Positions 20,643-47,159 of a DNA stretch of 64,000 nt are shown here, in pieces. The stretch comes from Spirochaetia bacterium (lineage in GTDB: Bacteria; Spirochaetota; Spirochaetia; UBA9216). Under the pieces are notes generated by a model. It did no database searches. It had not been told where the DNA came from and worked only from the letters and a program-made list of their open reading frames with translations. Numbering within the stretch: the first letter of the stretch is position 1; the number at the start of each line of letters is the position of its first letter. Location: contig OZ223269.1 in the NCBI GenBank assembly GCA_965140585.1, positions 896,001 through 960,000 of the forward strand, given 5' to 3'. Both the position numbers and the translations under genes were made by a program.

Positions 20643-21902
20643 TTAAATATTATCAAGTGGACTTTGTACCCCGAGTTTGTTCTTATTTGTCACATGTGTG
20701 TAGATCATCGTTGTACTAAGATCAGAATGACCAAGAAGTTCCTGAACCGTTCGGATATCATATCCTGATTCTATCAGATTAGTCGCAAAACTGTGTCTGA
20801 GAGAATGTACGCTTGCCTGTTTTGTTATGCCTGCCTGCAATACTGCTGAATGAAAGGCTTTTTGCAATGTGGAAGGATAGATATGAAATCTTCTGATCAC
20901 CTGAGAAAATGGATCAACAGAAAGATGATGAGAAGGAAACACCCAGAACCATATCCAGGATTTAGAAGCATTACTATATTTGGAGGATAAAGCCTGAGGC
21001 ATCATAACGCCTTCACAACCAGAAGAACGATCCTTTTCATAAATCTTCCTTATCCCTTCCAGATGGACTTTAAGTTCTGATATTAGGGATTCGGGAAGCA
21101 ATGTCAACCGATCTTTATTGCCCTTACCAGAGCGGATGTGAATAAACTTTCCGTTAAAATCTATATCCTTTACTCGTAATGAGAGACATTCCTTTAAACG
21201 CATACCACTGCCGAAAATCAGTTTAGACATAAGTTTGTTTGTGCCATCCATGTAACTGAATATCTTAGAAATTTCTTCTATCGTAAGTACTACAGGTAAT
21301 TTGGGATGCCTTTTAGAAAGCTTTATATCCTTAATATTAATTTCATCGATGCTGTATACGCTTCTTGCAAAAAATAGAATAGCGTTGAAAGCCTGCTTTT
21401 GTGTATTTACAGAAATCCGCCTAGTTGAAGCGAGAGTTTGAATATATTTGATAAAATCCTGCTCATAAACATTATCAGGGACAGCATCAGTATGTTTTAT
21501 AAAGTCTTTTACCCACCATTGATATGATTTTTCAGTCTGTAATGATCTATGTTTTAAACGTAGCTGAATTCGGTTTTCCTCAATTTTTGATAACCATTCC
21601 GGCTTAATATCAATAAAATTATTTTGTTCCAATTTGATTTCAATAGAATTGAATTTGAAGTATTTCAGTACAGCATCTTCAGCCTGAATAAGCTGCCAAT
21701 CTTCAAGTTTTGAATCTAATTTAAGGTCATCTATAAAAGTTTTATACGAATAGTCCTCTGACTGTTTCTTTTTTTTAAACGATAAAAATTTACTAACCCA
21801 ATAACAGTAGTATGGGTATACCTTAGCCGGAAGAGAAGTATAGCTTCTGAGATACCCTGTATAAGCATCCAAATTAGCAGATTTATTTTTTGATTCTTTC
21901 AT
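20643..21902 (-). CDS. intI: Integron integrase (tyrosine recombinase) with N-terminal extension
   Basis: Catalytic R (GMRLKE), K (GKGNKDR), HSLRH, LGH and Y (TMIYTH) all intact; integron-specific insert [16 protein letters not shown]...DP...RRFH; adjacent to an attC array. Confidence 0.95.
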
Positions 21903-30275: not shown

Positions 30276-31385
30276 ATGAGTAAAAGTAAAGATGTCTTTT
30301 TTCTTGGTGCGGGTTTTTCTAAGGGGGTTGGTGCGCCATTACAAGCTGAGATTCTATATAAAATTCTAAATCTAAATACAGCTAATATACAATATGAAAA
30401 AAGGCCAATATTTGTTGAGAATGTCGATAGAATAAGAAAACTTTTAACTGAGATTATGTATTTAGATATAACTGATAAAGAATTATTAATTGATTTGGAA
30501 GATGTATTTACTCCTCTTGATGCATGCATTAGTAATAACTATTCATTCAGAAATCTTTCAATAAATGATGTGATTGAATATAGGAAATCCTTAGATGTTA
30601 TACTTTCTATGTTTATGGAATATGAATTGGAATATTTAGATATTAGAAGTTCATACATACAGAAGATAGCAGACTACGTAGTTGAACAAAAAGTTGTTAG
30701 ACCTAAGAGTGATAAAGTATCTTTTATTACAACAAACTGGGATATAATATTGGATAATGCAATTTATAGGTCAATTAATAAGCAAAATTTAAAAAATGGA
30801 GTAATAGATTATTGTTGCCATACTACTCAATATGATACAGAAGATAAAATAATGCCGTCTCTGTTAGCGAAAGGAAAAGGATATTATAATGTTAAAATCT
30901 TGAAATTACATGGATCTTTAAATTGGTTGTTTTGTCCTAGATGTAATAGGTTATATACGAAGTTTTATAAAAAAATTTCAACTCATGAGTTTATAAAACG
31001 ACCAGTGTGTAGAATATGTGATAAAAATTTTAGAAATACAAATAGCAATGATCAAGGCCCTATGCTTACGGGGCAATTATTGATGCCAACATATATGAAA
31101 GATTTATCAAATGTGCAATTCAAAATGATATGGCAAAAAGCAAATATTGAATTGTCAGAAGCAAAAAAGATTATTTTTATTGGCTATTCATTTCCTATGG
31201 CCGATTTTGAAATTAGACAATTATTATCTAGAAATGTTCCTCATGATACTGAAATAGAAGTAGTATTAAAGGGCAATAATAAAGAAATTGAAAGAAGATA
31301 TCGAAGTTTTTTTGGAAGGCGAAATATTAATTTTAATATAGAAGGTGCTGAAAAATACATTGAAGAATATATTGAAAGTAATTGA
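30276..31385 (+). CDS. Cassette 7: SIR2-like NADase with Zn-finger insert
   Basis: FLGAGFS, ITTNWD, KLHGSLNW, CPRC...CRIC, IFIGYS. Confidence 0.82.
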   Translation: MSKSKDVFFLGAGFSKGVGAPLQAEILYKILNLNTANIQYEKRPIFVENVDRIRKLLTEIMYLDITDKELLIDLEDVFTPLDACISNNYSFRNLSINDVIEYRKSLDVILSMFMEYELEYLDIRSSYIQKIADYVVEQKVVRPKSDKVSFITTNWDIILDNAIYRSINKQNLKNGVIDYCCHTTQYDTEDKIMPSLLAKGKGYYNVKILKLHGSLNWLFCPRCNRLYTKFYKKISTHEFIKRPVCRICDKNFRNTNSNDQGPMLTGQLLMPTYMKDLSNVQFKMIWQKANIELSEAKKIIFIGYSFPMADFEIRQLLSRNVPHDTEIEVVLKGNNKEIERRYRSFFGRRNINFNIEGAEKYIEEYIESN

Positions 31386-31392
31386 GATCGGT

Positions 31393-31531
31393 ACATAACA
31401 TGAGATTTGGAGTAGTCAAAATTTATTGTCACGATTCTGGCTAAAGACGTTCGGGCAATGGCCCTCACTCCAGAATCGCGCCAATTCGGCGAAGACGCCG
31501 AACAATTTTGCTACTCAAATCGTCGTTATGC
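31393..31531 (+). repeat. attC 7
   Basis: ACATAAC...GTTATGC. Confidence 0.93.
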
Positions 31532-31558
31532 CGACGCAAGAAAAATCAAATAATCTTA

Positions 31559-31597
31559 TTGACAAAATATGCTAAATAATTAACTATTTACTTAGTT
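31559..31597 (+). promoter_or_regulatory. Promoter/operator of the TetR cassette
   Basis: TTGACA at 31559; inverted repeat TAACTA...TAGTTA just before the ATG; similar TAATTAAGTAATTAGTTA upstream of 32270. Confidence 0.5.
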
Positions 31598-32215
31598 ATG
31601 AGTACGAGAAATAGAGATATTACCAGAGCTAAAATATTAGAGGTCGCTTTAGAAAAATTCTCTGAAAAGGGGTTTAGCGCAGCTACAGTCAAATCAATCG
31701 CTGAGGATGCCCAAGTTAATCAGGCGTTAATCTATTATTATTTTGATAGCAAAAAGAAAATTTTAGAGGAATTAATAGATGATTTTATAGAAACCGCTAA
31801 TAGTTTTTTATATGAAATATTTATAAATGGATATCAATTTGGATCTTCCGAAATGAAAGAACAAATGGAAAAGTACAATGACTTTTTATTAAAGAATGAT
31901 AAAACATTACGGCTTATTTTTACAGAATCATTGAAAGACGAATATGAAATACCTCCCATTTTTAAGCTAATATTATCTGCAAATGAAAGTAACCAGAAGT
32001 TACAGTTTATAGATAAAATGAAACAGAATGGATTTAATTTTGATAGTGATATAAATCAATATATGGTAACTGAATTCTTTACAGGGATAATACCAGTTTT
32101 AGTTTTTAGCCTATTTAAGGGGAAATGGTGTTCAACATTTGGTGTTGATTCAAAGAATTTGTATGAGATGTTTTTAAAAGCTAATGATGCTACACATAAT
32201 GAAATGCATAAATAA
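31598..32215 (+). CDS. Cassette 8: TetR/AcrR regulator
   Basis: ILEVALEKFSEKGF...IAEDAQVNQALIYYYFDSK HTH. Confidence 0.9.
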   Translation: MSTRNRDITRAKILEVALEKFSEKGFSAATVKSIAEDAQVNQALIYYYFDSKKKILEELIDDFIETANSFLYEIFINGYQFGSSEMKEQMEKYNDFLLKNDKTLRLIFTESLKDEYEIPPIFKLILSANESNQKLQFIDKMKQNGFNFDSDINQYMVTEFFTGIIPVLVFSLFKGKWCSTFGVDSKNLYEMFLKANDATHNEMHK

Positions 32216-32269
32216 GAATAAAAAATTTGAATATATATTAATTAAGTAATTAGTTAGTAGGAGTGTAAT

Positions 32270-33082
32270 ATGACTGAAATATATTATTTTACAGGAACAG
32301 GTTTTACTTTAAAATGTGCAAAATTATTAAAACAATATATAGATGATAAAGTGGAACTAATACCAATTATTTCACTGAAGGAAGTGGAAAAAATTGAATG
32401 TGAATCAGATAATGTCGGATTTTTGTTTCCAATGCATTCATTTGATATACCCCCAATATATAAAGAATTTATTAAGAAATTCCACTGTCCAAAAGCAAAA
32501 TATATATTTTCATTAGTAACGTGTGGAGGAGCCCCTGTAAATGTTTTCAGAACAATAAGTAGACAGTTGAAAAAAGATAAAAAAGACTTAGATGCTTATA
32601 ATTTTATAGTTGCTCCAAATACATTTGATCCAGTTTTTAAAGTTTTAGTTGATAATAGTGTAAAAAATGAAAGAAAAAAAATAGAGGAAAAAGTCAAAGA
32701 ATTTGCACAGATAATAAACGAAAGAAAAATATCAAGAAAATTATCTTATAGAAATTACTTGATAGAATATACGATATTCCCGATTATTCGAATCCTAAAC
32801 CATCTTACAAAATATTATAAATTAGAAAAGGCTTTTTACACAGATGAATCATGTATTTCTTGTGGTAAATGTATAAGCATATGTCCAGTCCAAAAAATTA
32901 AGTTTAAAAATAATCAACCATATTGGGATGAAAATGTTAACTGTGTTTTTTGTTTAGCTTGTTTCCATAGATGTCCAACAGAATCGATACAAATAAGACA
33001 AACAAAATCAAAACAACTAAAACGAATATATCCAGAAGATATAAAAATAGAAGAATTGATAAAACAAAATACATATGAATAA
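32270..33082 (+). CDS. Cassette 8: EFR1-type flavodoxin-ferredoxin fusion
   Basis: YYFTGTG flavodoxin start; CISCGKCISICP and CVFCLACFHRCP. Confidence 0.85.
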   Translation: MTEIYYFTGTGFTLKCAKLLKQYIDDKVELIPIISLKEVEKIECESDNVGFLFPMHSFDIPPIYKEFIKKFHCPKAKYIFSLVTCGGAPVNVFRTISRQLKKDKKDLDAYNFIVAPNTFDPVFKVLVDNSVKNERKKIEEKVKEFAQIINERKISRKLSYRNYLIEYTIFPIIRILNHLTKYYKLEKAFYTDESCISCGKCISICPVQKIKFKNNQPYWDENVNCVFCLACFHRCPTESIQIRQTKSKQLKRIYPEDIKIEELIKQNTYE

Positions 33083-33103
33083 TTTATCGGTTATAATATA
33101 GCG

Positions 33104-33243
33104 GCATAACAAGAGAAATGCAGTAGTCAAAACCTTTGACACGGTTTTTGCAGAGAAGTAGGGTAGAGGTAAAAAGCTATGCAAAAACGCGCGCCAACCC
33201 TCGAAGACTCGGGACGTTTTCGCTACTGATTTCGTCGTTATGT
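33104..33243 (+). repeat. attC 8 (compensatory variant)
   Basis: GCATAAC...GAAATGCAGTAG...CTACTGATTTC...GTTATGT. Confidence 0.9.
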
Positions 33244-33357
33244 GGATATAAGAAATAAATATAAAAATGATAAAATAGTTCTGGAGATGAAAAATGAAAA
33301 AAGGGTTATATCAGTGGTCTTCTTCCGAAACAAGTAAAACTTAAAGAAAAAGTATGG

Positions 33358-34224
33358 TTGAAAAAAGATGAAATATTATTGGAAAAGAAAAATGATGAAA
33401 TAATTGCGTATCTTATTGGAGATGAAAAATTACAGTTTGATGATAATAATAAAATAATTCCATATTTATGGATGTCCTGTCTTATAACAAATAATACTCC
33501 AAATTTAAAAAGTTGTGGTGGAGCTTTAATAGAATCGGTTGAAAAGCTTGGAACAAAATCCATATTGTATGGTTCATTATTAGAGATAATACCAGAAGAA
33601 GCAGTCAATGAGATCGAAAAATACACTGGGGAATTTATTAAATTTATTGGAGATTTACACGATAAATATATTTTATTAATTGAGGAAAATGACTTTTTAA
33701 AGATTTCCTTAAAATATTTTTATGAAGCAGAAAAGAAAAATGTAAATTCTGATGAAGGTTTTATAGATTCAATAACATGTTTAGAAGCCCTGTTTAATGA
33801 AAGCTCAAATGATATTAAATATAAATTATCACATCGAGCAGGATTCTTATTAGGATTATTTAAATATAATTCTATAGAAGTATATGAGAAATTAAAGAAA
33901 TTTTATAATGATAGGAGTAATTTGGTTCATGGAAATGGTGCTTTGAAGTATGAGAAAGATAGATATCTTATTGAAGAATATACAAGAAGCGCAATCATTA
34001 TTTTTCTTATCCTTTTGTCGAATGATAAAAGAAAAGAAGATATTAAGAAAAAAGACAGAAAAAATCAGATATTAAAAGAAATAGATCATGCAATGCTTGA
34101 CTATGAAAAAAGTAATAACTTAAAGAAAGAGATTGATATTGGTATTGAAGATTTCAAATTAAATATACCAAGGGTTTTTGAAGGGAAAGGTAAAAAAGGT
34201 AATTATTATATACACGCATGGTAA
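33358..34224 (+). CDS. Cassette 9: HEPN (ApeA-like) domain protein; probable true start at 33294 is out of frame by one A
   Basis: ITCLEALF...KLSHR...FYNDRSNLVHG RxxxxH motif. Confidence 0.72.
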   Translation: MKKDEILLEKKNDEIIAYLIGDEKLQFDDNNKIIPYLWMSCLITNNTPNLKSCGGALIESVEKLGTKSILYGSLLEIIPEEAVNEIEKYTGEFIKFIGDLHDKYILLIEENDFLKISLKYFYEAEKKNVNSDEGFIDSITCLEALFNESSNDIKYKLSHRAGFLLGLFKYNSIEVYEKLKKFYNDRSNLVHGNGALKYEKDRYLIEEYTRSAIIIFLILLSNDKRKEDIKKKDRKNQILKEIDHAMLDYEKSNNLKKEIDIGIEDFKLNIPRVFEGKGKKGNYYIHAW

Positions 34225-34228
34225 AACC

Positions 34229-34367
34229 ACATAACAAAAGATTTGGAGTAGTCAAAATTTATTGTCACGATTCTGGCTAAAGACGTTCGGGCAATGGCCC
34301 TCACTCCAGAATCGCGCCAATTCGGCGAAGACGCCGATCAATTTTGCTACTCAAATCGTCGTTATAC
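34229..34367 (+). repeat. attC 9
   Basis: ACATAAC...GTTATAC. Confidence 0.93.
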
Positions 34368-34475
34368 GGAATATCGTGTATCTTTATAGCCTTATCCTGA
34401 AATTGGGGCGTAATTGGGGTGAATTTATGGATTCAATCTCAAGAATTGTTTTCATATCTTTGATTGATTAAATAG

Positions 34476-34510
34476 TTGACGTACGTTAATAAGTACTATA
34501 TATTGTACAT
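34476..34510 (+). promoter_or_regulatory. sigma70-like promoter with GTAC operator repeats, probably leaderless
   Basis: TTGACG-17bp-TATATT, ATG 6 nt later; three GTAC motifs including TGTACA. Confidence 0.6.
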
Positions 34511-34765
34511 ATGGAAGCTGTTAATTATTCAGATCTAAGACGAAATTTAAAGGCTCATATGGATCAAGTTTATCAGGATCACGAACCTCTTATTATTACA
34601 AGAAAAGATAATGAGAATTTAGTGATGATTTCATTAGATGATTACAATAGTCTTACAGAGACACAATACTTATTATCATCTAAGAAAAATTCTGAACATT
34701 TGATGAAATCACTTGAATCAGCTAGGGCTGGTAAGACTCTTAAAAAAGAATTAATTGTAGAATGA
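34511..34765 (+). CDS. yefM: Cassette 10: YefM antitoxin
   Basis: NYSDLRRNLK...DHEPLIITR...SLDDYNSLTETQYLL. Confidence 0.9.
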   Translation: MEAVNYSDLRRNLKAHMDQVYQDHEPLIITRKDNENLVMISLDDYNSLTETQYLLSSKKNSEHLMKSLESARAGKTLKKELIVE

Positions 34766-35016
34766 ATTTACTATTTACGCCTGAATCCTGGGATGATTAT
34801 CTATTCTGGCAGAAGAATGATAAAAAGAATTTAAGAAGAATTAATGAATTAATAAAAGATATTAGACGAAATCCATTTGAAGGAATTGGTAAACCTGAAC
34901 CATTAAAATATCAACTGCAAGGATGTTGGTCTCGTAGAATCGATCAAGAACATCGTCTTGTATATGAAGTAGAAGAAAAATTTATAAGAATCATTGCATG
35001 TCGATACCATTATTGA
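34762..35016 (+). CDS. yoeB: Cassette 10: YoeB toxin
   Basis: WDDYLFWQ...PFEGIGKPEPLK...WSRRIDQEHRLVY...CRYHY. Confidence 0.93.
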   Translation: MNLLFTPESWDDYLFWQKNDKKNLRRINELIKDIRRNPFEGIGKPEPLKYQLQGCWSRRIDQEHRLVYEVEEKFIRIIACRYHY

Positions 35017-35141
35017 ATGATGCTTTCTTGTTTCAGAATATCTATTATAAATAAGAAATATTAGAAATTTAAGAATATAAGATATCTGGATATTAAAAGA
35101 ATAAAAGCTCCTGTAAACCTTAAAACCATTGTAAAATATCC

Positions 35142-35273
35142 GTATAACAAATGAAATGCAGTAGTCAAAACCTTTGACACGGTTCTGGCAGAGACACTCG
35201 CTTAGCGCTCGTTCCAGAACCGCGCCAAGCCTCGAAGACTCGGCCGGTTTCGCTACTGATTTCGTCGTTATGC
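35142..35273 (+). repeat. attC 10
   Basis: GTATAAC...GTTATGC. Confidence 0.92.
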
Positions 35274-35300
35274 GGACGCCTCCGGCGCCTAAGGAAGAAA

Positions 35301-36344
35301 ATGAAGAAAAGGAAAGTAGTCCTAATAGTGATTACTGTAATTGTGCTAATTTTATTGGTTATAGAAATACTCCCAAATAAAACCACAGTTGAGAGCACAA
35401 CTGATGGTATATATCTCCTAAAAGAGATGAATCTGGTAGGATTGAAGCAATCTATCCTGATAAGAGGAGAAAATAGATCAAACCCAGTAATAATCTTTCT
35501 ACATGGAGGGCCAGGATTCGCTAGTATAAGTTATATAAAGAAATTTCAGAAAGAAATTGAAAAACATTATGTAGTAGTAAATTGGGATCAGAGGGGAGCA
35601 GGGAAGTCATTTTCATTATTTATTGATAAAAATACAATGACAGAAGAACAAATTTTAAATGATCTTGATCAATTAGTAGATTATTTAAGTAAAGAATTTG
35701 ATAAGGAAAAAATATATATAGTAGGACATTCATGGGGAACAATATTAGGAAAGGACTATGTTCAAAAACATCCAGAAAAAGTTGAATATTATGTAGCCAT
35801 TGGAGAATATGTATCAAGCAATGAATCAGATAAGTATTCTTATGAATATTTACTAAAAGAATCTGAAGCAAATAATGATAAGAAGACATTAGAAAATCTG
35901 AAAGAAATTGGAAAACCTCCTTATGGGGATAATATAAGAAAACAACGGAAATTTAGAAAAATTATTAATGAATATGATGGAAATGAGATAATCGTAAATA
36001 TAAATAAAGAAATGTTAAAAGGCGCAATAACAGAACCAGAATATTCAATAATTGATCTTCTGAAATTGACTATAGGCAATTACTATTCCATCTATCATTT
36101 ATTTAATGAATATGAGGATAGAGATTTTAGAGAAGAAAATTTGGAATTTAATGTTCCAATACTATTTATATTAGGAAAGAAAGACCTTGTCACAAATAGT
36201 CTATTAGCAGAAGAATATTTTGAAGAAATAGAAAGTAAAAATAAGAAATTAATATGGTTTGAAAAATCTGGTCATGATCCACAATATGAAGAATTAGCCA
36301 GATTCAATGATATTCTAATAGGTTTATTAGAACGAACCGATTAA
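35301..36344 (+). CDS. Cassette 11: alpha/beta hydrolase (proline iminopeptidase-like) with N-terminal anchor
   Basis: HGGPG, WDQRGAGKS, GHSWG, D, SGH. Confidence 0.88.
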   Translation: MKKRKVVLIVITVIVLILLVIEILPNKTTVESTTDGIYLLKEMNLVGLKQSILIRGENRSNPVIIFLHGGPGFASISYIKKFQKEIEKHYVVVNWDQRGAGKSFSLFIDKNTMTEEQILNDLDQLVDYLSKEFDKEKIYIVGHSWGTILGKDYVQKHPEKVEYYVAIGEYVSSNESDKYSYEYLLKESEANNDKKTLENLKEIGKPPYGDNIRKQRKFRKIINEYDGNEIIVNINKEMLKGAITEPEYSIIDLLKLTIGNYYSIYHLFNEYEDRDFREENLEFNVPILFILGKKDLVTNSLLAEEYFEEIESKNKKLIWFEKSGHDPQYEELARFNDILIGLLERTD

Positions 36345-36353
36345 TGGGAATTC

Positions 36354-36491
36354 GCATAACATGAGATTTGGAGTAGTCAAAATCTTTGTCACAGTTCTGG
36401 CGGAGACACTTCGCGCTGATCGCGCTGCGTTCCAGAACTGCGCCAAGCCTCGAAGACTCGGCCGATTTTGCTACTCAAATCGTCGTTATGT
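36354..36491 (+). repeat. attC 11
   Basis: GCATAAC...GTTATGT. Confidence 0.93.
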
Positions 36492-36530
36492 TCACAAAAA
36501 TTGGGAATTTATTAAATCCGAGGGATTTAA

Positions 36531-36794
36531 ATGAGTAAATTCAGAACCACTGAAAGCCATCAAAAGGGCTACCAAGGACTGCGATGGTTTGAGATACACA
36601 ATGATAAGATTTATCCTACAGTTTCTAATCCAGACGGATGGAGTAGTATGTCATGGTACGAAATTAAGGGTGATAAGATATATCCTTCCATTAGTCATCC
36701 TAAAGTGTGGTCAGGCTTACCTTGGTTTGAAATAAAAGAAAATAAGATAAATTGTACTGTGAGCCATTCAGATGGCACGGTCACCTTGGTATAA
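36531..36794 (+). CDS. Cassette 12: small protein with ~23-aa W[FY]EI..[DN]KI repeats
   Basis: GAGG RBS; three internal repeats. Confidence 0.6.
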   Translation: MSKFRTTESHQKGYQGLRWFEIHNDKIYPTVSNPDGWSSMSWYEIKGDKIYPSISHPKVWSGLPWFEIKENKINCTVSHSDGTVTLV

Positions 36795-36868
36795 AAATTA
36801 TTAGATAACAATTTTTTTAGAAATATAAATTGTGATGTGATCAGTGATTAGAAATTAAGAGGTTATTT

Positions 36869-37516
36869 ATGGAAGAAATAAATAGAATAGAATTATCTGA
36901 ATTAGATTATAAAAAATATTTAAATAAATTGAGTCAGATTAATATTAAAGTTAATAGATTATTATATAAAGTAAGTTTGGAGGAATACTATGGAGCTATA
37001 TTTTCTAAGATTATTTTAATAAGATTAATAATTACTTTTAAAAATGTAAAAACGTTTATTCTCAAAGAATTAGCGATAGAATCTTTTGTATTAATGCGCT
37101 TCATTCAAGAACAGAGATGTTATTCGTATAGCTTATTAGATGTAAAAAATGATGAAGATATTAAAAAAATATCTATAACAAAGAGTATAAATAAGTTCAA
37201 AGAAAGATTCTTAATAAATGGTCAATTTTATGGAGAATTAACAAGATATGTCCATTTGGATATACATGAAATTGGTTTTTATACATCACTAGATGAAAAG
37301 ACTGAGAATATAATGAATGTAGATTTAAATCATAATGACTCGGAAATTAATTATAAGATGTTCGATAGTTTCTATGTTTTAACATTGTTTTATCTTGATC
37401 TTGTACAATATATTTTAGAACTTGAGAATAAAGATGATTCATCTATACGAAAAATTGAAAAATATAATAGTGAAATTTATGATGTATTCAGAAAGGTATT
37501 TCAGAATGAAAATTAG
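36869..37516 (+). CDS. Cassette 12: hypothetical protein
   Basis: GAGG RBS; 215 aa; ends at attC. Confidence 0.65.
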   Translation: MEEINRIELSELDYKKYLNKLSQINIKVNRLLYKVSLEEYYGAIFSKIILIRLIITFKNVKTFILKELAIESFVLMRFIQEQRCYSYSLLDVKNDEDIKKISITKSINKFKERFLINGQFYGELTRYVHLDIHEIGFYTSLDEKTENIMNVDLNHNDSEINYKMFDSFYVLTLFYLDLVQYILELENKDDSSIRKIEKYNSEIYDVFRKVFQNEN

Positions 37517-37517
37517 A

Positions 37518-37655
37518 ACATAACAAGAGATTTGGAGTAGTCAAAACCTTTGTCACAGTTCTGGCGGAGACACTCCGCGCTGATCGCGCTGCGTTCCAGA
37601 ACTGCGCCAAGCCTCGAAGACTCGGCCGATTTTGCTACTCAAATCGTCGTTATAT
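37518..37655 (+). repeat. attC 12
   Basis: ACATAAC...GTTATAT. Confidence 0.93.
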
Positions 37656-37773
37656 GCACGAATTTAGATATTGTAAAAATATTAGATATATGTGAATTTT
37701 GGGTGTAAAATAATAAAATAAAGTCGTGTTCCGATAAGAATTTAAATAGATGTTCATCATCTAAGCGTTGATT

Positions 37774-37797
37774 TCCTCGGCCATCCATGGCCTCGGA
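37774..37797 (+). other. Hairpin with ATCCAT loop upstream of the RT
   Basis: TCC-tc-GGCC ATCCAT GGCC-tc-GGA. Confidence 0.6.
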
Positions 37798-37812
37798 GCA
37801 AAGGAATAAAAA

Positions 37813-39408
37813 ATGGATTACGATAAAGCAATTAATCTTGCAATATCAAATACATTAAAAGAAGGTTTAAACGATACCTTTCCACGCCCATTTGAAGTTG
37901 ATTTACTCAAAAATACAGTATTTCAAAAAAAAATTTTTGATGTAATTAAAAAATCATTAAATGGGAATTCTTTTGAAAGTATGGGAGTAAATAACATTTC
38001 ACATGTGTTGTTTCCTAAAAACACAGCTTTTGATTTTAGACGATGTGCACTGATACAGCCTATGGATCTTATAAAATACAATGCAATCATAATATCTCTT
38101 GCTGATGAAATAGAAAAGAAAAGAATTCCAATATCAAAAAAGAACATTTTTTCTTATCGATTTAAACCTGAAAAAGGATATTTGTTCAATAGGAATTATC
38201 ATATAACCTCCTTTCAGAAGCAAGTACGAGAAGTTGCAAAGAAAAAAAGAGTAAATTTCGTCGTTTCATGTGATATAGCTAATTTTTATGATAGATTAAA
38301 CTTGCATCGCCTAGAAAATTCATTACTTTCAATTGGATGTGATAAGAATAAAGTTAAAACTATAAACGAACTACTTCTATTTTGGTCAAATAGAGATTCT
38401 TATGGACTTCCTGTTGGGTCAAATGGGAGCAGAATATTAGCTGAAGCGAGTTTAATTGGTATAGATAATTTTCTTAAAGATAATAATATCGAATTTATAA
38501 GATTTGTTGATGATTTTAGACTATTTGCTCCTGATACAACAACTGCGCATTATTGGTTAACACTTTTAATTGAAAGACTTTGGAGAGAAGGTTTAAATAT
38601 AAGCAAAAGTAAAACAAAAATAGAAGCAACTTCAAAAATTAAAGAAGATAACGTGGAAAAAAATAAGACTTCACCAGAAAAAAGAAAGGATAAAAATCCA
38701 TTTATAATAATAGCTGGGTATGGTGGAACTGTTCCAACTAGATTTAGAGAGATTTCTAAAAGGGAAATTGAACAATTAACAAAAATAAATTTAGAAGAAC
38801 TTATAAAGGATATTTCTGAATCTGATTTTATAAATTCTGATAGATTAATGGAATTGATAAAAATCATTGTAATAAAGAAACGATTTGATCTACTGGAAAA
38901 GACAATTAAATCGTTGCCAAAATATCCGCAAATGACTCCATATTTGATAGATGCTATAATTAAAAATATAGATATTATACCAAAGGAAATAATAAAAGCA
39001 GTGAAGGATATATTTTCTGAAAAAATAATATCACAGAAATATATACCTGAATATTTAGCTATATCATATATAAGGTTGCTTGGGTGTGTACCGTTTTATA
39101 ATAAAGAGATTATTTTAAAATATTTTAGGGAATTACAAAAGAATTCAGGTGATTATATAGGAAGGGTCACCCTCGAAGCTTTAAATGTTGATTTGACACG
39201 GGAAGATGTAATTGAATTAAAAAGCTATTATGATAAGTGTGATTTATGGGAAAAAAGACAGATTATTAGATTAATAAATAAATTCTTAAATGATGAAGAA
39301 AAAAGACCTTGGATTAAAAATCTAAGATATATAGAAAAAGATAATCTGTTTATAAATGAAACAATAAGTCCGTCAGAAAAACCACGAAAGAAGAAAAAAA
39401 AGAAGTAA
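37813..39408 (+). CDS. Cassette 13: reverse transcriptase, UG/Abi/DRT-like, with helical C-terminal domain
   Basis: PK...FRR, SYRF, CDIANFYD, GLPVGSNGSRILAE, FIRFVDDFRLF, GLNISKSKT. Confidence 0.88.
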   Translation: MDYDKAINLAISNTLKEGLNDTFPRPFEVDLLKNTVFQKKIFDVIKKSLNGNSFESMGVNNISHVLFPKNTAFDFRRCALIQPMDLIKYNAIIISLADEIEKKRIPISKKNIFSYRFKPEKGYLFNRNYHITSFQKQVREVAKKKRVNFVVSCDIANFYDRLNLHRLENSLLSIGCDKNKVKTINELLLFWSNRDSYGLPVGSNGSRILAEASLIGIDNFLKDNNIEFIRFVDDFRLFAPDTTTAHYWLTLLIERLWREGLNISKSKTKIEATSKIKEDNVEKNKTSPEKRKDKNPFIIIAGYGGTVPTRFREISKREIEQLTKINLEELIKDISESDFINSDRLMELIKIIVIKKRFDLLEKTIKSLPKYPQMTPYLIDAIIKNIDIIPKEIIKAVKDIFSEKIISQKYIPEYLAISYIRLLGCVPFYNKEIILKYFRELQKNSGDYIGRVTLEALNVDLTREDVIELKSYYDKCDLWEKRQIIRLINKFLNDEEKRPWIKNLRYIEKDNLFINETISPSEKPRKKKKKK

Positions 39409-39437
39409 TCCTAAAGTCCGTCCATGGACTTTAGGAT
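39408..39437 (+). other. 12-bp hairpin with GTCCAT loop directly after the RT stop
   Basis: ATCCTAAAGTCC GTCCAT GGACTTTAGGAT. Confidence 0.7.
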
Positions 39438-39461
39438 ATTTATTGGAAAAGAAAGAGTTGC

Positions 39462-39599
39462 ATATAACAAAAGATTTGGAGTAGTCAAAATCTTTGTCAC
39501 AGTTCTGGCGGAGACACTCCGCGCTGATCGCGCTACGTTCCAGAACTGCGCCAAGCCTCGAAGACTCGGCCGATTTTGCTACTCAAATCGTCGTTAAAT
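39462..39599 (+). repeat. attC 13
   Basis: ATATAAC...GTTAAAT. Confidence 0.93.
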
Positions 39600-39670
39600 A
39601 CACAAAAAGTAATTCTTATAGTATCATATGAATATAAAATATATAATTTACTACAATTGGAAGAGATTAG

Positions 39671-39925
39671 ATGAGTGGAGCTGGAACAAATTTAGGGATA
39701 GAATACCAACAAAGAGTATCTGCGTGGTTCTTAGTCCAGTTATACCTTTCAACTGGTATTAATCTTTTTTTTAGAAACTTTAATGATAATTTTGTACCAA
39801 TAGAACTACAATATGAATCTGATAATGCAGTTGATGATTTAAATATTATAGGAAGTGATTATACACTTTTTGCGCAAATAAAACGAAATTTAGCAATGTC
39901 ATCTAATAAGAAAAGTGATTTTTAA
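39671..39925 (+). pseudogene. Cassette 14: truncated N-terminal Cap4/Mrr-like nuclease domain
   Basis: GIEYQ...E...VDDL...FAQIK PD-(D/E)xK-type pattern; stops at 84 aa next to a compositional junction. Confidence 0.55.
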
Positions 39926-39981
39926 ACTGAGCACGGAATGTCAGGTTTTTCGGTTTTTGATACCTTATCTTATTACAAACC

Positions 39982-40902
39982 ATGATGCTTATGAATGAAA
40001 AAGATTTCCGGTATCACCGGCGGCTACAGAATGCAATAGATTATATCGAAGCTCATCTTCATGTGGATTTATCATTGCAGGAGGTGGCAATGCAGGCCAA
40101 CACTTCAATTTTTCACTTCCACAGACTCTTCCGGGCCTTTATGGGCCGGTCTCTGGCGGAGTATATAAGGGAACGCAGGCTATATTATGCGGCTCGAGAT
40201 CTGGTGGAAACCAAAAAAAGCATTTTTGATATTGCATTTGAATATGGATATTCCAGCGGGGAAAGCTTCCTTCGGGCTTTCAAGTCTCAATACGGTCAAA
40301 CCCCGCGGCGTTTTCGAAAGATACGAAATCTCCCTCCCTTCATGAGCATGGTTAATTTAATGGACGGCAACCATCATGGTGCCAAAGGAAGGTTAATCAT
40401 GAATCCAAAAATCAAGGTGCTAGATTCTCTGCGGATAATCGGTACACGCATTCAAACCAGTCATAGTTCCTGTCATGAAGATGTTTCCGACCTATGGAAA
40501 GATATCCATAGCAAGGCAAGTACAGGATTACACGACGAACTCAGCAGTGTAGATGCCATATACAGCGTTTGTTACGGCTCTTGCAATGGCTGCAGTTGTA
40601 CCGGAAATACTCACTCGGGAAGTGAAAATTTTGCTTTTTTTATCGGATATCAGGCACAGAAAGAAAAAGAATTGCCTGCCGGTACTTTCGAAACGACAAT
40701 TCACGGAGGAACCTATGCACTGTTCAGCCTCAAAATTAGTGAGATGCAACAGACAATGGATCAAATATATTCTCAATGGCTTCCTAAATCCGGGTATGAG
40801 CTGGATCACTACCCTATAATTGAAAGATATGGAAAGGACTGGCAGGAGAAAAAAGAGGGTATTATGGAAATATGGTTGCCCCTCAAAGTAGAAGCCTCAT
40901 GA
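39982..40902 (+). CDS. AraC regulator with GyrI-like effector domain
   Basis: AIDYIEAHL...FHFHRLF...IAFEYGYSSGESFLRAFK; C-terminal IYSQWLPKSGYE...EIWLP. Confidence 0.9.
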   Translation: MMLMNEKDFRYHRRLQNAIDYIEAHLHVDLSLQEVAMQANTSIFHFHRLFRAFMGRSLAEYIRERRLYYAARDLVETKKSIFDIAFEYGYSSGESFLRAFKSQYGQTPRRFRKIRNLPPFMSMVNLMDGNHHGAKGRLIMNPKIKVLDSLRIIGTRIQTSHSSCHEDVSDLWKDIHSKASTGLHDELSSVDAIYSVCYGSCNGCSCTGNTHSGSENFAFFIGYQAQKEKELPAGTFETTIHGGTYALFSLKISEMQQTMDQIYSQWLPKSGYELDHYPIIERYGKDWQEKKEGIMEIWLPLKVEAS

Positions 40903-42021
40903 AGAATCAACCTACAATACTGCTTTTTATAATCGGATTCTTTCTATTTTGGGTGAACTGTAGTGTCCTACATGCTTTGCTTCGGTCTGTTCACTCTATT
41001 TTTTGGTCCCCTGGGTGATAGGTTCGGCAAAACCAGAATACTGAAGCTGGCGGCAATGGGTTCTGCTGTTGCAAGTTTGGCTTCAGCCTTTTCTCCAAAT
41101 CTGAATGTAATTATTGTTATCCGGGCAATTAACGGTGCTTTTTCTGCCGGGGTTATGCCGATTTCAATGGCTTATATCGGAGAAACATCTCCTCAACATG
41201 AAATGCACAGCCGAATCGGCAAGGTTATGGGGCTGATGTTCCTGGGAAGCGCCCTGGCCACGGTAATCGGCGGAACAGTATCCCAGCTGGGTTCCTGGAG
41301 AATGGTATATTTGGTATACGGATTTGCGGAGTTGCTGTTAGTAATTCCTCTTTTCCTTCTGTTGCCTACTGACTCAACAGTAAAAAACAGCTCTATAGGG
41401 TCAGGATACAAAGAATTGCTTCGAACCCCGGGGTTCCTGAAAACTGTCGGTTTACTGTTTTTTATCGGCTTTTCTACCCTAGGTACTTTCGCATACCTGG
41501 GAGAGTACCTTCGTCAGCTCACCGGTTACGGTCTGATTCGGATCGGGTGGATTTTGGGAGCCTACGGAATCGGAACACTCTTAGGCGGAAGAATAGCGGC
41601 AGAATTACGCATGAAAATCGGCAAAGCCTTTTATTTTCTTGCTGGTTTAACGGGCGGAATAGGCTTCACATTCATATCCTTCAGCAGTACTTCTGCATAC
41701 ATCGCGGTGGCAGGATTATTTTTGGCAGGCTTAGCCTTCATCAGCCTGCAATCTTCCATTGTTTTTCAAGCACAGAATCTTGCACCGATGCGTAGAGGAG
41801 CTGTAATGTCAGCCGCTTCTTTTACAATGGTAACCAGTGCAGCCTTGGGAACATTTCTAAACGGAAAAATATTTGCCATAATGTCGGACGGCCTGCTCTA
41901 TTGTGCCGCCGGGGCTTTCTTAACCGCCGGTCTGCTGGCAACCCTAGTTTTATTATTTCGTAAACCCGGGGGGCAGAACAGACCCTCATCAATAGAATCA
42001 CATACTTCATTGAAAACATGA
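40899..42021 (+). pseudogene. MFS transporter with N-terminal deletion/frameshift
   Basis: Coupled ATG at 40899 (MKNQPTILLFIIGFFLFWVN) is in a different frame from the MFS body (GPLGDRFGK motif A) starting near 40963. Confidence 0.65.
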
Positions 42022-42211
42022 TTTGTTAACCGGCAGTCTTCACAAAAGGCTACCGGATTTTTATTTTATAGATATTTAGGTGAAAACTGCCAGTAATTCA
42101 ATGCCATGAAGAGACTGGAAGTTGGAATCTTTCTTACATGAAAGAAAAACACTGAGAACAATAACAATTTACAATCAAATTCCTCATATTATATTATTAA
42201 TTTTAATAAAA

Positions 42212-42739
42212 TTATTTTCTCCTTTTTGCAAAAACTTCCTGGTTCATTTTCCAAGTTTTCGTTTTATCATTAGTAACAAACGCTTCCCATTTAAATGATT
42301 CATCAGTTATATCTTTAAAAACCCATCTTGAGATTTTGCCTTTATCAATAAATGGTATTTCATCTTGAACTATCTCATCATTTTCTACAGTAACTTTAAA
42401 TACGTTGAACTGCGAAAGTATTGGTCCAAACCAAAATGCTTTTATATTGTTTTCTTTAAAATCATAGACTCTGATTGTCGTCCCATACTCACCTTCCGGA
42501 TATTTATCCGTTTTTCGGAGTTCTCTTAATGGACATATCCAATTATCTTGAATAACACGCCCTTCCAAAATCCATGTAAAAATCCATTCACCTGGAACTG
42601 TCCAAGTTGAGCCATCATCCTCATGTCCCACCCAATCAAAATTCCAGTTGCCAATTAGCGGAGCATATGGACGTAATTTCTCCTGATATTGTTCATGAAC
42701 ATTATCAGCTAGTAAGGACTTTATAAATGTGTTTATCAT
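42212..42739 (-). CDS. Hypothetical protein (beta-barrel-like)
   Basis: AGGAG RBS before the ATG at 42739; LIGNWNFDW...GEWIFTWILEGRVIQD. Confidence 0.65.
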   Translation of the reverse strand: MINTFIKSLLADNVHEQYQEKLRPYAPLIGNWNFDWVGHEDDGSTWTVPGEWIFTWILEGRVIQDNWICPLRELRKTDKYPEGEYGTTIRVYDFKENNIKAFWFGPILSQFNVFKVTVENDEIVQDEIPFIDKGKISRWVFKDITDESFKWEAFVTNDKTKTWKMNQEVFAKRRK

Positions 42740-42852
42740 ATTTACTCCTATCGAATAAAAATCTATACAAGGTCTTTCATAGTTAGTAGCGAAGCACAGA
42801 TGCCGAATGTTCAAAATCGCAAAATAAAAAACTCTGATTTGGCACAATTCCC

Positions 42853-43512
42853 TTAACTAACAATAACTTTATACAGACATAATGAAATCGGCAAACTAAA
42901 AGCCAAAAAACCACTGATTGTATGACCCCGTGCTGACCATTTTGCAGAATTAGTAACAAACGTAACTATTGAATATGTGACTCCAAGAGGAAATGTAGAA
43001 ATTATAAAAATTACAGGATGATCACTTTGGATAGAAAACTGAGGTGCGATATGCCAAAGAGTAAAAAATATTGACGGAATAAATACAGACCACAATATAC
43101 TTTTAGGAAATACTTTAATATAAAGTCCTCTCCAAAATAATTCCTCACAATATCCATGAATTATTGAGAGTGGGATAGCAAGAATTATTATAGCTGGAAT
43201 CATTGATGGTAGCTTCGGAATGAAGTACATAAATATCGGTACCAATATTGTGGATGCAAATAATATTAAAATCCACCAATTCTTCTTCCTGAAAAGAGGT
43301 CTTTCATTTCTGAAAAAGCTGAAAAATGATCTCTTCGATGTATAAAGCGGAATTAATATGCACCATATTATGTAATAAAATGCAAAGCCTAATAGATAAC
43401 CCCAATACTTTCCCAGGGATTTAGTTGCAACATAGAAAACAAACGATGTAGTTAAGATCAAAAGAATGGGGAGTATTATAAAGAGTCCTTTTTTCGTTAG
43501 CATAGAAAACAT
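42853..43512 (-). CDS. CPBP/Abi (CAAX-type) intramembrane metalloprotease
   Basis: EELFWRG, FTLWH, H motif; multi-pass membrane. Confidence 0.82.
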   Translation of the reverse strand: MFSMLTKKGLFIILPILLILTTSFVFYVATKSLGKYWGYLLGFAFYYIIWCILIPLYTSKRSFFSFFRNERPLFRKKNWWILILFASTILVPIFMYFIPKLPSMIPAIIILAIPLSIIHGYCEELFWRGLYIKVFPKSILWSVFIPSIFFTLWHIAPQFSIQSDHPVIFIISTFPLGVTYSIVTFVTNSAKWSARGHTISGFLAFSLPISLCLYKVIVS

Positions 43513-43661
43513 TATTTAGCTCTCCAATCTGCTATAGATAGCATATTCTTTTTATTCATATAAATTATTTTGCGTTTATTTCCAATAATGTTTCAGAAAT
43601 ATGCGAAATGCGGCAACTTCGCATTTGCCGAAGGCCGGCCCATTGGGTGCAGTGCATATTT

Positions 43662-44453
43662 CTAGTTAATTGTGTCATATGGTACAGGTTGAGTACCATC
43701 GATATCTTCAAAACCATATTCCTTAGCCAATTCAGCAGTTACTAATATTTGTCCAGTTTTTGATATTGGTTTTACATCAGAAGCCAAGTGTGAAATTGCC
43801 CTCCCGACGAACTGAGAGGATTCTTTTTTGGGATTGGGCTTCTTCTTGTTATCGTCAATGTAACCGGGATATAATGAAACACAAGTAATGTTATATGGTT
43901 TTAGTTCGACTGCCATATCCATAGACATTTTATCAACTGCTGCCTTTGCAGTACCGTAAATTACATTTCCGTAGTATTTAAGACTGGCATAAAACGAAAT
44001 ATTTACTATTAATCCTTGCTTTTGCTCAATCATCATTTCTGTGGCAAAAACACTTGAAACAAAATTTGAACGAACACCAACATGGTTCATTTCATCCCAC
44101 AACTCTATAGGTTGTTTCCAAAAAACTTCTTTCCACTTAAAGCCTTTATATTTAGTTCTGTTACGTAACCGATTATAACCACCCCAAGCATTGTTAACCA
44201 ATATATCCAGCTTTCCTTCTTTTTCTTTAATAATTTCAAATACTTTTTTTACTTCCTCATCTATCTCATGATTACATGCTAATGCAATACCTTTTCCGCC
44301 AGCAGCAGTAATACCCTTTACATCTTTGTCGGTTATACTTCTGCCTGTTACATAGACAGTTGCTCCTGCTTCACCTAAACCGATTGCGATTCCTTTGCCA
44401 ACGTTACGGGTTCCGCCTGTTACAAGCGCAACTTTCCCTTTAAGATTTTTCAT
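43662..44453 (-). CDS. SDR oxidoreductase (DHRS1-like)
   Basis: TGGTRNVGKG, LVNNA, YGTAK. Confidence 0.9.
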   Translation of the reverse strand: MKNLKGKVALVTGGTRNVGKGIAIGLGEAGATVYVTGRSITDKDVKGITAAGGKGIALACNHEIDEEVKKVFEIIKEKEGKLDILVNNAWGGYNRLRNRTKYKGFKWKEVFWKQPIELWDEMNHVGVRSNFVSSVFATEMMIEQKQGLIVNISFYASLKYYGNVIYGTAKAAVDKMSMDMAVELKPYNITCVSLYPGYIDDNKKKPNPKKESSQFVGRAISHLASDVKPISKTGQILVTAELAKEYGFEDIDGTQPVPYDTIN

Positions 44454-44537
44454 TTTGTCTCCTGATTACCAATTTTAGATATTATTTTAGTTAAATTTGT
44501 GGTTGTTTTCTTGACCTATATTGCTATTTTTGTGTAT

Positions 44538-45535: not shown

Positions 45536-45670
45536 ATTTAACAAATCGCTGAAACTGACCAAATCTTTGTCATGCTTTTTGCCTTCGGCCGTTCAGTCAC
45601 TGATCGTTCTTTCACTCAAAAAGCACGCCAACCCTTCGGGACGATTTGGCAGCTTAGCTCGGCGTTAAAT
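45536..45670 (+). repeat. attC 14 (divergent family)
   Basis: ATTTAAC...GCCAACCCTTCGGGAC...GGCGTTAAAT. Confidence 0.88.
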
Positions 45671-45788
45671 ACACGATGTTTTTCCGTTTAGGGAAATCCT
45701 TGGGTGTGATAGGATTGATTAAGAAAAATAAGATGAATTTCCATAGGTGCGCTGCCAACATCATTAGTTGAAAGCCATTATAAGTGGA

Positions 45789-45821: not shown

Positions 45822-45857
45822 TTGAAATAAGTTAGCATGCATGCTAACTTATATTGT
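45822..45857 (+). promoter_or_regulatory. TA promoter overlapped by a 26-bp perfect palindrome (operator)
   Basis: TTGAAA-17bp-TAACTT; ATAAGTTAGCATGCATGCTAACTTAT at 45827-45852. Confidence 0.65.
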
Positions 45858-46220
45858 ATGAAACGAGAAATTATCTTCTATGAAAAAGAAAATGGAAGAT
45901 GTCCAGTTGAAGAATTTTTAGATGATCTTGAGATAAATATTGTTAAAAAGATTACATGGACTCTAAAAATTATTGAAGAGATAGATATAGTTCCAAAGAC
46001 TTATTTCAAAAAATTAGAATCAACAGAAGAAATTTGGGAAGTAAGAATAAAATTCGCTTCAAATATATATAGAATATTTAGTTTCTGGGATAAAAATAAC
46101 ATAATTGTGTTAACGCATGGATTAATAAAGAAAACTCAAAAAACCCCTGCAAAAGAGATAAAACAAGCAGAAGAATATAGACGAGATTATCTGAGGAGGA
46201 AGAATAATGAACTTAGATGA
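45858..46220 (+). CDS. Cassette 15: RelE/HigB-like (DUF891/Gp49) toxin
   Basis: FYEKENGRCPVEEFL...IWEVRI...YRIF...HGLIKKTQKTP.KEI. Confidence 0.85.
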   Translation: MKREIIFYEKENGRCPVEEFLDDLEINIVKKITWTLKIIEEIDIVPKTYFKKLESTEEIWEVRIKFASNIYRIFSFWDKNNIIVLTHGLIKKTQKTPAKEIKQAEEYRRDYLRRKNNELR

Positions 46221-46479
46221 ATATGTTGATAAAAGAATAAAAAAAGAAGGAATTAAAGAAGAAGAATTCTGGGAAGGGTATGAGGAATTCAAGATCGGTG
46301 TATTTCTAAGAGAAGCAAGAGAGAAAAATGGATTAACCCAGGAAGAATTAGCTAGAATGATACATACTACAAAGAGTGTAATATCAAGAATGGAAAATCA
46401 TTCAGAGGATATAAAATTATCAACAATTGAAAAAGTCGCAAAGGCTTTAGGAAAGGAAGTGAAAATAGCGATAGTATAA
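46207..46479 (+). CDS. Cassette 15: XRE-HTH (HigA-like) antitoxin
   Basis: LREAREKNGLTQEELA...ISRMEN. Confidence 0.85.
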   Translation: MNLDEYVDKRIKKEGIKEEEFWEGYEEFKIGVFLREAREKNGLTQEELARMIHTTKSVISRMENHSEDIKLSTIEKVAKALGKEVKIAIV

Positions 46480-46589: not shown

Positions 46590-46728
46590 ATTTAACAAGA
46601 GATTTGGAGTAGTCAAAATTTATTGTCACGATTCTGGCTAAAGACGTTCGGCCAATGGGCCTCACTCCAGAATCGCGCCAATTCCGCGAAGACGCGGAAC
46701 AATTTTGCTACTCAAATCGTCGTTATAT
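46590..46728 (+). repeat. attC 15
   Basis: ATTTAAC...GTTATAT. Confidence 0.93.
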
Positions 46729-47159
46729 TCAATAAAGGTAACGGCCGGTAACTTGGTCAACACATTTCTAATAGATTAGTGTACAGCAGCGATTTATTAA
46801 GAAAAAGAGATTAGATTAGCTCCTGATTAAAATAATACGCCTAAAAGAGTTATAAGATTAAAGGAACTTATTGATTTTCCATTTCATTACAAATCAATAA
46901 GTCTTTATATTCTAATGACTTAGCTAACAATTGTCTATTTAAAGATGCGAATGATAGAATTATTTATAAAATATAGTTCCCAGGGGCTGAAAACAGCCTT
47001 AAAATGGTAAAATACAGAAAATTGTGTACACGTAGTTATTAGAAATTTGTATACAAAGCTCGGTCTGAACATAAATTGTGTTTTAATTAAATATTTGTAG
47101 GAGAAGTTGCTAATTTAATGGTATAAGTAAATAATATTATAAAATTAAGGATTTAAGAA

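Follow-up and report, generated by a model that had tools for sequence, protein, structure and literature searches.

A nuclease-less UG7/DRT8-family reverse transcriptase carried as a single-gene cassette in a chromosomal integron of a Spirochaetia bacterium

The DNA analysed in this study (the window) is a stretch of 64,000 nucleotides (nt) from a Spirochaetia bacterium (assembly GCA_965140585.1, contig OZ223269.1, positions 896,001 to 960,000 of the forward strand), and positions are given as counted from its first base. On the plus strand, a gene cassette of 1944 nt is present at 37650..39593, which harbours the gene for a reverse transcriptase (RT) of 531 amino acids (aa) at 37813..39408. 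The RT gene is preceded by an A+T-rich leader of 163 nt (37650..37812) with two weak hairpins and an AGGA site, and is followed by a perfect 12-bp hairpin (39408..39437) and by the attC recombination site of the cassette (39464..39598). A self-contained cassette with flanking repeats had been claimed in the preliminary description of this locus, and this was confirmed, as the repeats are attC sites and the RT is the sole gene between them.

The cassette belongs to an integron. The integrase gene intI was located at 20643..21902 on the minus strand, divergent from the cassette array, as an open reading frame (ORF) of 419 aa without internal stops. It was identified by a match to the integrase_gron profile TIGR02249 with 374.7 bits (curated cut-off 265), which covers contig positions 916649-917575, equivalent to 20649-21575 of the window. 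An nhmmer search with a profile of the attC family, a repeat of approximately 135 nt, gave 25 matches between 23947 and 63997, all on the plus strand, and a second attC profile identified an additional, shorter class, including the site at 30112-30229. The repeats start with ...ATAAC, end with GTTA... and fold into long imperfect hairpins; a 25-base motif of the attC 3' end was present in 17 copies compared to 0 expected by chance. As twelve attC sites precede the RT gene, counted from intI, the RT cassette is the 13th of the array, approximately 16 kb from intI.

Recombination between the G and the TT of the GTT triplet in attC is established integron knowledge. This crossover rule, which is restated in the preprint of Darracq et al. 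(10.1101/2024.07.02.601686), sets both ends of the RT cassette. The attC of the preceding cassette was found at 37520..37652 on the plus strand (nhmmer E 1.4e-45; repeat families D1/D4/D5), and its GTT at 37649-37651 is the 5' boundary of the RT cassette. In the attC of the RT cassette itself (E 1.1e-44), the R'' half (...ATAAC) begins at 39463 and the R' GTT lies at 39593-39595; the fold of its bottom strand has -33.5 kcal/mol (z-score (z) -6.6) and an outer stem interrupted by two bulges of one base each. At the cassette ends, GTTATATGCA occupies 37649-37658 and the inverse sequence TGCATATAAC occupies 39459-39468. This 10-nt inverted repeat is the pairing of the cassette's own attC core halves when the cassette is circular. 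The region 37650-39593 is one cassette of a large sedentary chromosomal integron.

The cassette was also matched by contigs of sequencing runs. A DNA contig of 1867 nt from run X1 spans 37625-39491 without a single difference. Apparent joints between 37653-55 and 39462-64 in X1 contigs were considered as products of cassette excision and rejected; they were read as contigs of other cassettes, the ends of which (approximately 30 nt) lie in the shared attC repeats. Pieces of the RT gene, differing at 2-3 positions per 151 nt and amounting to little of its length (38639-38929), were found on contigs of run X3, which is from another study and bears another organism label, and a near-identical RT is therefore present in a second data set.

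The RT gene is a single ORF with no frameshifts or stops, and its N-terminus aligns with those of its homologues from residue 1. The AGGA sequence at 37802-37805, 8 nt upstream of the start codon, is the ribosome-binding site. All of the motifs that had been read by eye were located in the protein, with a full palm (DIANFYD at residues 154-160, GLPVGSNGSRILAE at residues 198-211 and FVDD at residues 231-234) and a basic C-terminal tail at residues 519-531 (KPRKKKKKK). RVT_1 was the only Pfam family detected (E 1.7e-14). The PADLOC model PDLC03783 (Drt8) matched residues 4-506 over profile positions 4-477 of 493, with 423.4 bits and an E-value of 4.3e-127, compared to 131 bits for the runner-up PADLOC model (RT_UG20) and 48 bits for the PADLOC AbiP2 model. 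Among the NCBIfam models, the RT protein scored 67.6 bits with Drt4 (cut-off 450) and 51.2 bits with Drt5 (cut-off 550), and was far below the cut-offs of Drt2 and Drt3a. UG7 was equated with DRT type 8 by Mestre et al. 2022 (PMC9226505), who handle it in the section on Class 1, the members of which consist of an RT domain and a C-terminal helical-repeat domain. To judge from the profile matches, the cassette RT is a member of the UG7/DRT8 family. The initial proposal of a defence-type RT of the UG/Abi kind was thereby supported, and the clade that it had left open is supplied by PADLOC.

Relatives of the RT were numerous, with 932 found at E ≤0.001 among 8000 scored candidates, the closest being 65% identical. 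The length was 524-584 aa in 119 of the 120 relatives listed and 406 aa in the remaining one. An alignment of 58 members contained 60 invariant columns, many of them in the C-terminal half of the protein, and all are kept in the window RT. These include the catalytic residues D154, D233 and D234 (58/58). The lysine-rich tail is also a family trait, with at least five lysine or arginine residues among the last 12 in 32 of the 58 members. Four of 72,556 plasmid records, and none of 50,697 phage records, matched the RT at E ≤1e-20; for the Caballeronia match, no co-directional ORF of at least 120 aa was found directly downstream of the RT. No full-length Drt8 match was detected in the genomes of 40 relatives of the host (one of the same genus, nine of the same family and 30 of the same class), in which the best score was 75 bits and covered the RT domain only. 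This absence fits acquisition of the gene through the integron.

An AlphaFold2 model built from the family alignment was confident, with a mean predicted local distance difference test score (pLDDT) of 87 and a predicted template modelling score (pTM) of 0.86, except in a linker at residues 280-307. The model comprises RT fingers and palm (residues ~1-280), the disordered linker, which ends in the invariant motif GYGG with Y303, a helical repeat domain (~308-518, with helices through 316-518) and the basic tail (519-531). The top Foldseek matches were DRT6, DRT4/UG15, AbiK, Abi-P2 and AbiA (E 2e-11 to 2e-9). Alignment over the whole length of the model (~4-521, at a root-mean-square deviation of ~5 Å) was obtained only with these five, namely DRT6 (9wy8; Z 19.9, 441 residues, model 5-521), AbiA (8oz7; Z 19.1, 398 residues), DRT4 (9vdo; Z 18.1, 426 residues), AbiK (7r06; Z 17.0, 451 residues) and Abi-P2 (7r08; Z 16.1, 392 residues). 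The alignment with RTs of diversity-generating retroelements (DGRs) and group II introns was confined to residues 1-346, and that with DRT9 and DRT2 to the RT domain. As only Class 1 enzymes align over the full length, the C-terminal region of approximately 250 residues, already described as helical from its sequence, is the Class 1 UG/Abi helical-repeat domain.

The first base of the hairpin downstream of the RT gene is also the final base of the stop codon, and the hairpin is terminator-like on both strands. As previously described, it has 12 perfect base pairs. Its predicted energy was -19.1 kcal/mol (z -4.94), none of 200 shuffled sequences being as good, and it is the strongest terminator-like site in the region 23900-43800. 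A 3' flank with z < -3 was observed in 5 of 42 homologues; the hairpin is not a feature of the family. Most simply, it would end a cassette-specific transcript ahead of attC. Cassette, ORF, motifs and 3' hairpin alike go well beyond what chance would give.

There is no second ORF in the RT cassette. The PADLOC model of the DRT8 nuclease (PDLC03797, RTasPDDEXK; cluster 17 of Mestre et al. 2022) gave no match at E ≤0.01 in the genome that harbours the cassette, which is 98.5% complete. As a positive control, the same model detected the nuclease of a canonical pair on a viral contig (L080), in which the RT scored 536 bits and an overlapping ORF of 245 aa scored 225 bits. A tblastn search with the L080 nuclease, in which the window was included alongside 67 homologue loci, matched L080 and its twin L084 only. 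No recurrent partner was common to more than four loci when 419 neighbouring ORFs from 56 loci were clustered, and the nuclease was likewise missing from these 56 closer homologue loci (neighbour and gap counts are based on mechanical ORF calls, which are over-called in G+C-rich loci). Because no adjacent PD-(D/E)XK gene is present, the window RT does not belong to DRT8 in its validated two-gene form, and because its genome lacks a match to the nuclease model, action of the RT alone is favoured for this locus. It is quite probable, in our assessment, that the cassette encodes a nuclease-less UG7/DRT8 RT which acts on its own. Such RTs are a substantial part of the family, as Mestre et al. 2022 (PMC9226505) recorded 150 of 385 UG7 members linked to a PD-(D/E)XK-like protein and 165 of 358 without an associated gene. 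The earlier argument, in which the whole system was taken to be defined by the cassette, is sensible but not rigorous, as the validated DRT8 consists of two genes and the cassette of the closest relative includes an ATPase.

In a quick maximum-likelihood tree of 44 RTs, from which partial ORFs and the presumed duplicates L031, L040, L045, L049 and L084 had been dropped, the window RT was sister to the RT of L001 (support 100). Both were placed in a clade of 39 sequences from many phyla (Shimodaira-Hasegawa-like approximate likelihood ratio test 97), which was separated from the nuclease-linked L080 by a long branch (support 99). All six sequences from viral contigs are long-branched, and L080 is the single nuclease-linked one, so the split between nuclease-linked and stand-alone RTs in this tree depends on one sequence.

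L001, from a metagenome-assembled genome of Oceanispirochaeta, is the closest genomic homologue, with an RT 63% identical to that of the window, and it also appears to be an integron. Within five bases of the RT stop codon begins an element of approximately 115 nt (5598-5714), the arms of which are nearly identical to those of the window attC at 30112-30229 and which has the same fold (z -5.6); further copies are present at 1608-1713 and 7413-7534. These L001 sites were missed by a regular-expression-plus-fold scan and by the first attC profile, and were detected by repeat finding and the second profile; the other 66 loci may therefore likewise contain attC sites, unrelated in sequence, that escaped detection. 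A single weak attC match was found in L037 (E 0.009). In the L001 cassette, the RT is immediately preceded by a gene for an OLD-like ATPase/TOPRIM protein (2710-3942), and the next cassette encodes a PDC-S19 protein which is 61% identical to that encoded at 54601-55857 in the window. As the two spirochaete integrons share both an RT and a PDC-S19 cassette (61-63% identity), they draw on a common cassette pool.

The mechanism of the window RT was considered by analogy with Class 1 enzymes. AbiK, Abi-P2, AbiA, DRT4 and DRT6 synthesise template-independent DNA, which is covalently linked to one of their own tyrosines, and for DRT4 and DRT6 the activating event is that a phage DNA-binding protein shields this DNA from host exonucleases (PMC12783706). 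The window RT most likely works like DRT4 and DRT6. It would oligomerise, as these analogues suggest, prime on its own tyrosine and make single-stranded DNA without a template; a phage factor would then let this DNA accumulate or act, and the infected cell would stop growing (abortive infection). The best candidate for priming is Y303, which is placed where the flexible linker joining the RT domain to the helical domain ends. It is tyrosine in all 58 aligned members, within the motif GYGG, and the linker that precedes it is variable and has pLDDT values below 50. In AbiA, priming is from Tyr298 or Tyr303, likewise located in the linker between its RT and helical domains (PMC12783706). The hairpin at the stop codon would end the transcript before attC. 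As the cassette is approximately 16 kb from intI, it might be silent until shuffled to the array's first position, unless the leader has a promoter of its own. For these mechanistic steps we regard the chances as evenly balanced. A wider proposal is more tentative, and we hold it possible but on balance doubtful: nuclease-less UG7 RTs might be complete one-protein immune systems, in which Y303-primed template-free DNA would be the effector with no need for a nuclease, and marine spirochaete integrons might circulate this minimal form, with the OLD-type ATPase as an optional addition.

Several points weigh against an RT that is sufficient by itself and primes from Y303. The priming tyrosine of DRT4, Tyr125, aligns with Y129 of the window RT, which is tyrosine in 44 of the 58 members; as Y129 is not invariant, the priming site would differ from that of DRT4 and is only putative. 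Y303 is also not the sole invariant tyrosine, as Y115 and Y159 are conserved in 58/58. Y159 is five residues past D154, which we take to be the usual position of the sugar-selecting aromatic residue of RTs. All of the mechanistic steps are drawn from analogy. The cassette is far from intI and its expression may be doubtful; the 13 promoter-like matches in the cassette region compare with 11.6 expected from shuffled sequences, and none stands out. With regard to composition, the only DRT8 system tested by experiment, which protects against phage T5, is of the nuclease-linked kind and needs the nuclease active site, and the question of a nuclease acting in trans for nuclease-less UG7 RTs was left open (Mestre et al. 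2022, PMC9226505). A partner may have been lost at the window locus, or may act in trans; since the L001 RT shares its cassette with an OLD-like ATPase-nuclease, that gene could be what was lost.

These last points lead to the view that the cassette holds the orphaned half of a two-component system, which lost a nuclease or ATPase partner and is now an inert relic or needs a factor encoded elsewhere. In addition to the nuclease requirement of the validated DRT8 and the OLD-like ATPase beside the RT in L001, a co-oriented AAA_15/OLD-type ATPase gene is adjacent to the RT, upstream or downstream, in 6 of the 67 loci (L001, L014, L020, L021, L048 and L081), and the cassette that follows the RT cassette opens with an 84-aa fragment with a nuclease-like N-terminus. 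However, the RT ORF is intact and has kept every residue that is invariant in the family, the clade of the window RT is without a constant neighbour, and no homologue of the L001-type OLD gene was found in the window. The OLD-adjacent sequences are dispersed over the tree, with a degree of clustering no greater than that obtained when labels were shuffled (values as low in 172 of 500 shuffles), and OLD adjacency was for this reason treated as a lead and not as a finding; it could reflect either a defence-island neighbourhood or a recurrent optional partner. The 84-aa ORF (39671-39925) was rejected as a lost DRT8 effector, as it matches the N-terminus of PDC-M54A (E 4e-10) and not RTasPDDEXK, nor any of the 419 neighbour ORFs at E <5. 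With 165 of 358 UG7 members lacking an associated gene (PMC9226505), an orphaned RT is an improbable explanation of this cassette.

It might also be that the cassette is silent cargo, with no present function, which is kept in the integron reservoir and is not expressed at its position. This would agree with its place as the 13th cassette, with promoter-like matches that are no commoner than in shuffled sequences, and with the poor expression of distal Vibrio cassettes until they are moved to the first position (Darracq preprint, 10.1101/2024.07.02.601686). On the other hand, the presence of a 163-nt leader and of a strong terminator-like hairpin right after the stop codon suggests that the cassette is transcribed as a separate unit, and the ORF has no frameshifts or stops. 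Storage is moreover compatible with the preferred explanation, as a stored defence gene, and is not opposed to it. As an account of the cassette in its own right, silent cargo is unlikely.

A third explanation is that the 163-nt leader, or a part of it, is a non-coding RNA which is bound and copied by the RT, as in DRT2, DRT3 and DRT9. The leader is long for a cassette, and the two hairpins on which the preliminary description based a structured leader are indeed present in the minimum-energy fold, at 37747-37763 and 37773-37798. Both are weak and not clearly beyond chance. The first has -5.2 kcal/mol and, when folded alone, a z of -4.2, in a segment that was picked after the fold had been seen. 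The second has -11.7 kcal/mol and a z of -1.86, which becomes -0.04 when the start of the ORF is included, and the fold of the whole leader has a z of -1.86, with 10 of 200 shuffled sequences as good. A promoter-like sequence at 37683-37711 matches 9 of 12 positions, which is no more than shuffled sequences give. No Rfam family was matched at E ≤1 in a scan of 37400-39750, and no second copy of the leader was found in its own genome. When the leader was compared by blastn with the regions upstream of 50 homologues, all of which are at most 65% identical, the best match was 12 nt (E 0.12). An ORF of at least 100 aa ended within 100 nt of the RT start at 12 of 46 homologue loci, and the gap in the nearest homologue (L001) is 59 nt. 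The leader was also considered as a remnant of an upstream gene and this was rejected, as blastx against the L001 OLD-type gene and a 149-aa ORF gave only a match of 14 residues to the 149-aa ORF (E 1.8). A conserved leader RNA component is unlikely, because there is no Rfam match, no similarity among homologues and no second copy, the folds are weak and the upstream gaps are short. It may be added that the full-length fold matches are with the template-independent Class 1 enzymes, that the alignment of DRT9 and DRT2 does not extend beyond the RT domain, and that the RT is far below the cut-offs of the Drt2 and Drt3a models. The earlier alternative of an RT with a short leader RNA was thus not sustained (0 of 50 homologue leaders similar); we regard an RT with an RNA partner as very improbable here.

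That the gene is instead the RT of a group II intron or a DGR is effectively refuted, and a retron RT is highly improbable. All three had already been doubted in the preliminary description, as had a fused nitrilase, which the Pfam result also speaks against. Taken by itself, the RT domain can be superposed on the RTs of DGRs and group II introns (Z 19-21 over ~250 residues), but the C-terminal helical-repeat domain is common only to Abi/DRT Class 1 enzymes, the score with the group II intron model TIGR04416 was 55.7 bits (cut-off 300), RNAs of introns or retrons were not detected by Rfam (37400-39750, E ≤1; Rfam does not cover all retron RNAs), no retron RT model was present among the 25 best of 49 PADLOC matches, and no direct repeat of at least 60 nt was found in or beside the cassette other than attC, a scan in which shorter or more diverged template/variable repeat pairs were not sought.

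The other cassettes of the array suggest a rich content of defence genes, with matches to Orf5/HEC-06 (22237-23940, E 5e-139), Shedu SduA (28637-30109, E 4e-124), RmrT with RmrA (50396-52133, RmrA E 3.5e-99), PDC-S19 (54601-55857, E 2e-73) and AbiLi with AbiLii (58409-60340). A 2TM effector (61027-61611) and a toxin-antitoxin-like pair (45837-46479) were also assigned. By these assignments the integron serves as a store of defence genes. Two copies of a 300-nt stretch, which begins from an attC 3' end, are present with 100% identity, at 25959-26258 and 46702-47001, 20.7 kb apart (family D9), which suggests a duplicated cassette start.

The region that follows the RT cassette differs in content. 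Its opening 84-aa ORF corresponds to only the first 84 positions of the PADLOC candidate PDC-M54A, which is of approximately 1650 aa. The approximately 2 kb beyond this ORF are higher in G+C (41-50%, compared to approximately 27%) and encode an AraC/GyrI-like regulator and a major facilitator superfamily transporter that is short at its N-terminus. Three minus-strand genes come next, for an ORF without an assigned family, an Rce1-like protease and a short-chain dehydrogenase, which complete the stretch 39980-44460. No attC site was detected by either attC profile between 39598 and approximately 45540, and the stretch looks like a disrupted or invaded part of the array. The ten bases TTAAATACAC are identical at the start of the cassette after the RT attC (39594-39603) and of that after the attC at approximately 45540-45678 (45669-45678); this may be due to chance or may be a trace of a rearrangement behind the attC-free stretch.

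Among the closest known systems, DRT type 8 has in common with the cassette RT the RT family by profile, the build of RT and helical domains and an intact catalytic motif (Mestre et al. 2022, PMC9226505). The window differs from it in having no RTasPDDEXK gene in the cassette or in the genome and in being carried as an integron cassette. Its RT corresponds to the nuclease-less variant, which was counted in that paper (165 of 358) but was not tested there, and is 36% identical in the best segment to the RT of the canonical pair L080. DRT8 is listed at 'family-level only' in a review table from 2026 (PMC13213688), and no mechanistic study of DRT8 and no published report of a DRT in an integron were found in a literature search. 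DRT8 is a defence RT without a worked-out mechanism, of which about half of the family is without the nuclease that the tested system needs. A cassette that an integron moves as one unit, in a genome without this nuclease, provides a clean natural setting for the question of whether the RT is sufficient alone, and in Y303 it offers a specific tyrosine to mutate.

The single-gene systems DRT4 (UG15) and DRT6 (UG12) resemble the window RT over the whole length of the structure (9vdo, Z 18.1; 9wy8, Z 19.9), and both are active against phage T5, as is DRT8. DRT4 is nevertheless of another sequence family, as the match to its sequence in the PDB is limited to residues 122-291 (E 8e-6). AbiK (7r06/7r07), Abi-P2 (7r08) and AbiA (8oz7) also match in full-length fold, with sequence identities of 13-18%, and the priming tyrosines of AbiA are in the RT-helical linker, where UG7 RTs have the invariant Y303. 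AbiA has a further C-terminal domain. These three are genes of lactococcal plasmids or of coliphage P2, and not integron cassettes. DRT2, DRT3 and DRT9 belong to the same superfamily of defence RTs, but the window has no conserved upstream RNA and its structural match to them is confined to the RT domain.

As a genetic unit, the RT cassette is similar to the phage-defence cassettes of chromosomal integrons that have already been described, often with fewer genes than their relatives elsewhere (Darracq et al., 10.1101/2024.07.02.601686; Kieffer et al., 10.1101/2024.07.02.601719). The terms 'reverse transcriptase' and 'DRT' do not occur in the main texts of these two preprints, and with the window the range of defence genes seen in chromosomal integrons comes to include a reverse transcriptase. 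The current picture of integrons or of DRTs is not changed by this cassette. Like the cassettes of the preprints, it combines a compact defence gene and an attC of its own, lies in a chromosomal array that is long and has defence neighbours, and would be a known multi-gene system reduced to fewer genes; unlike them, its host is a relative of the spirochaetes and not a Vibrio or an enterobacterial plasmid.

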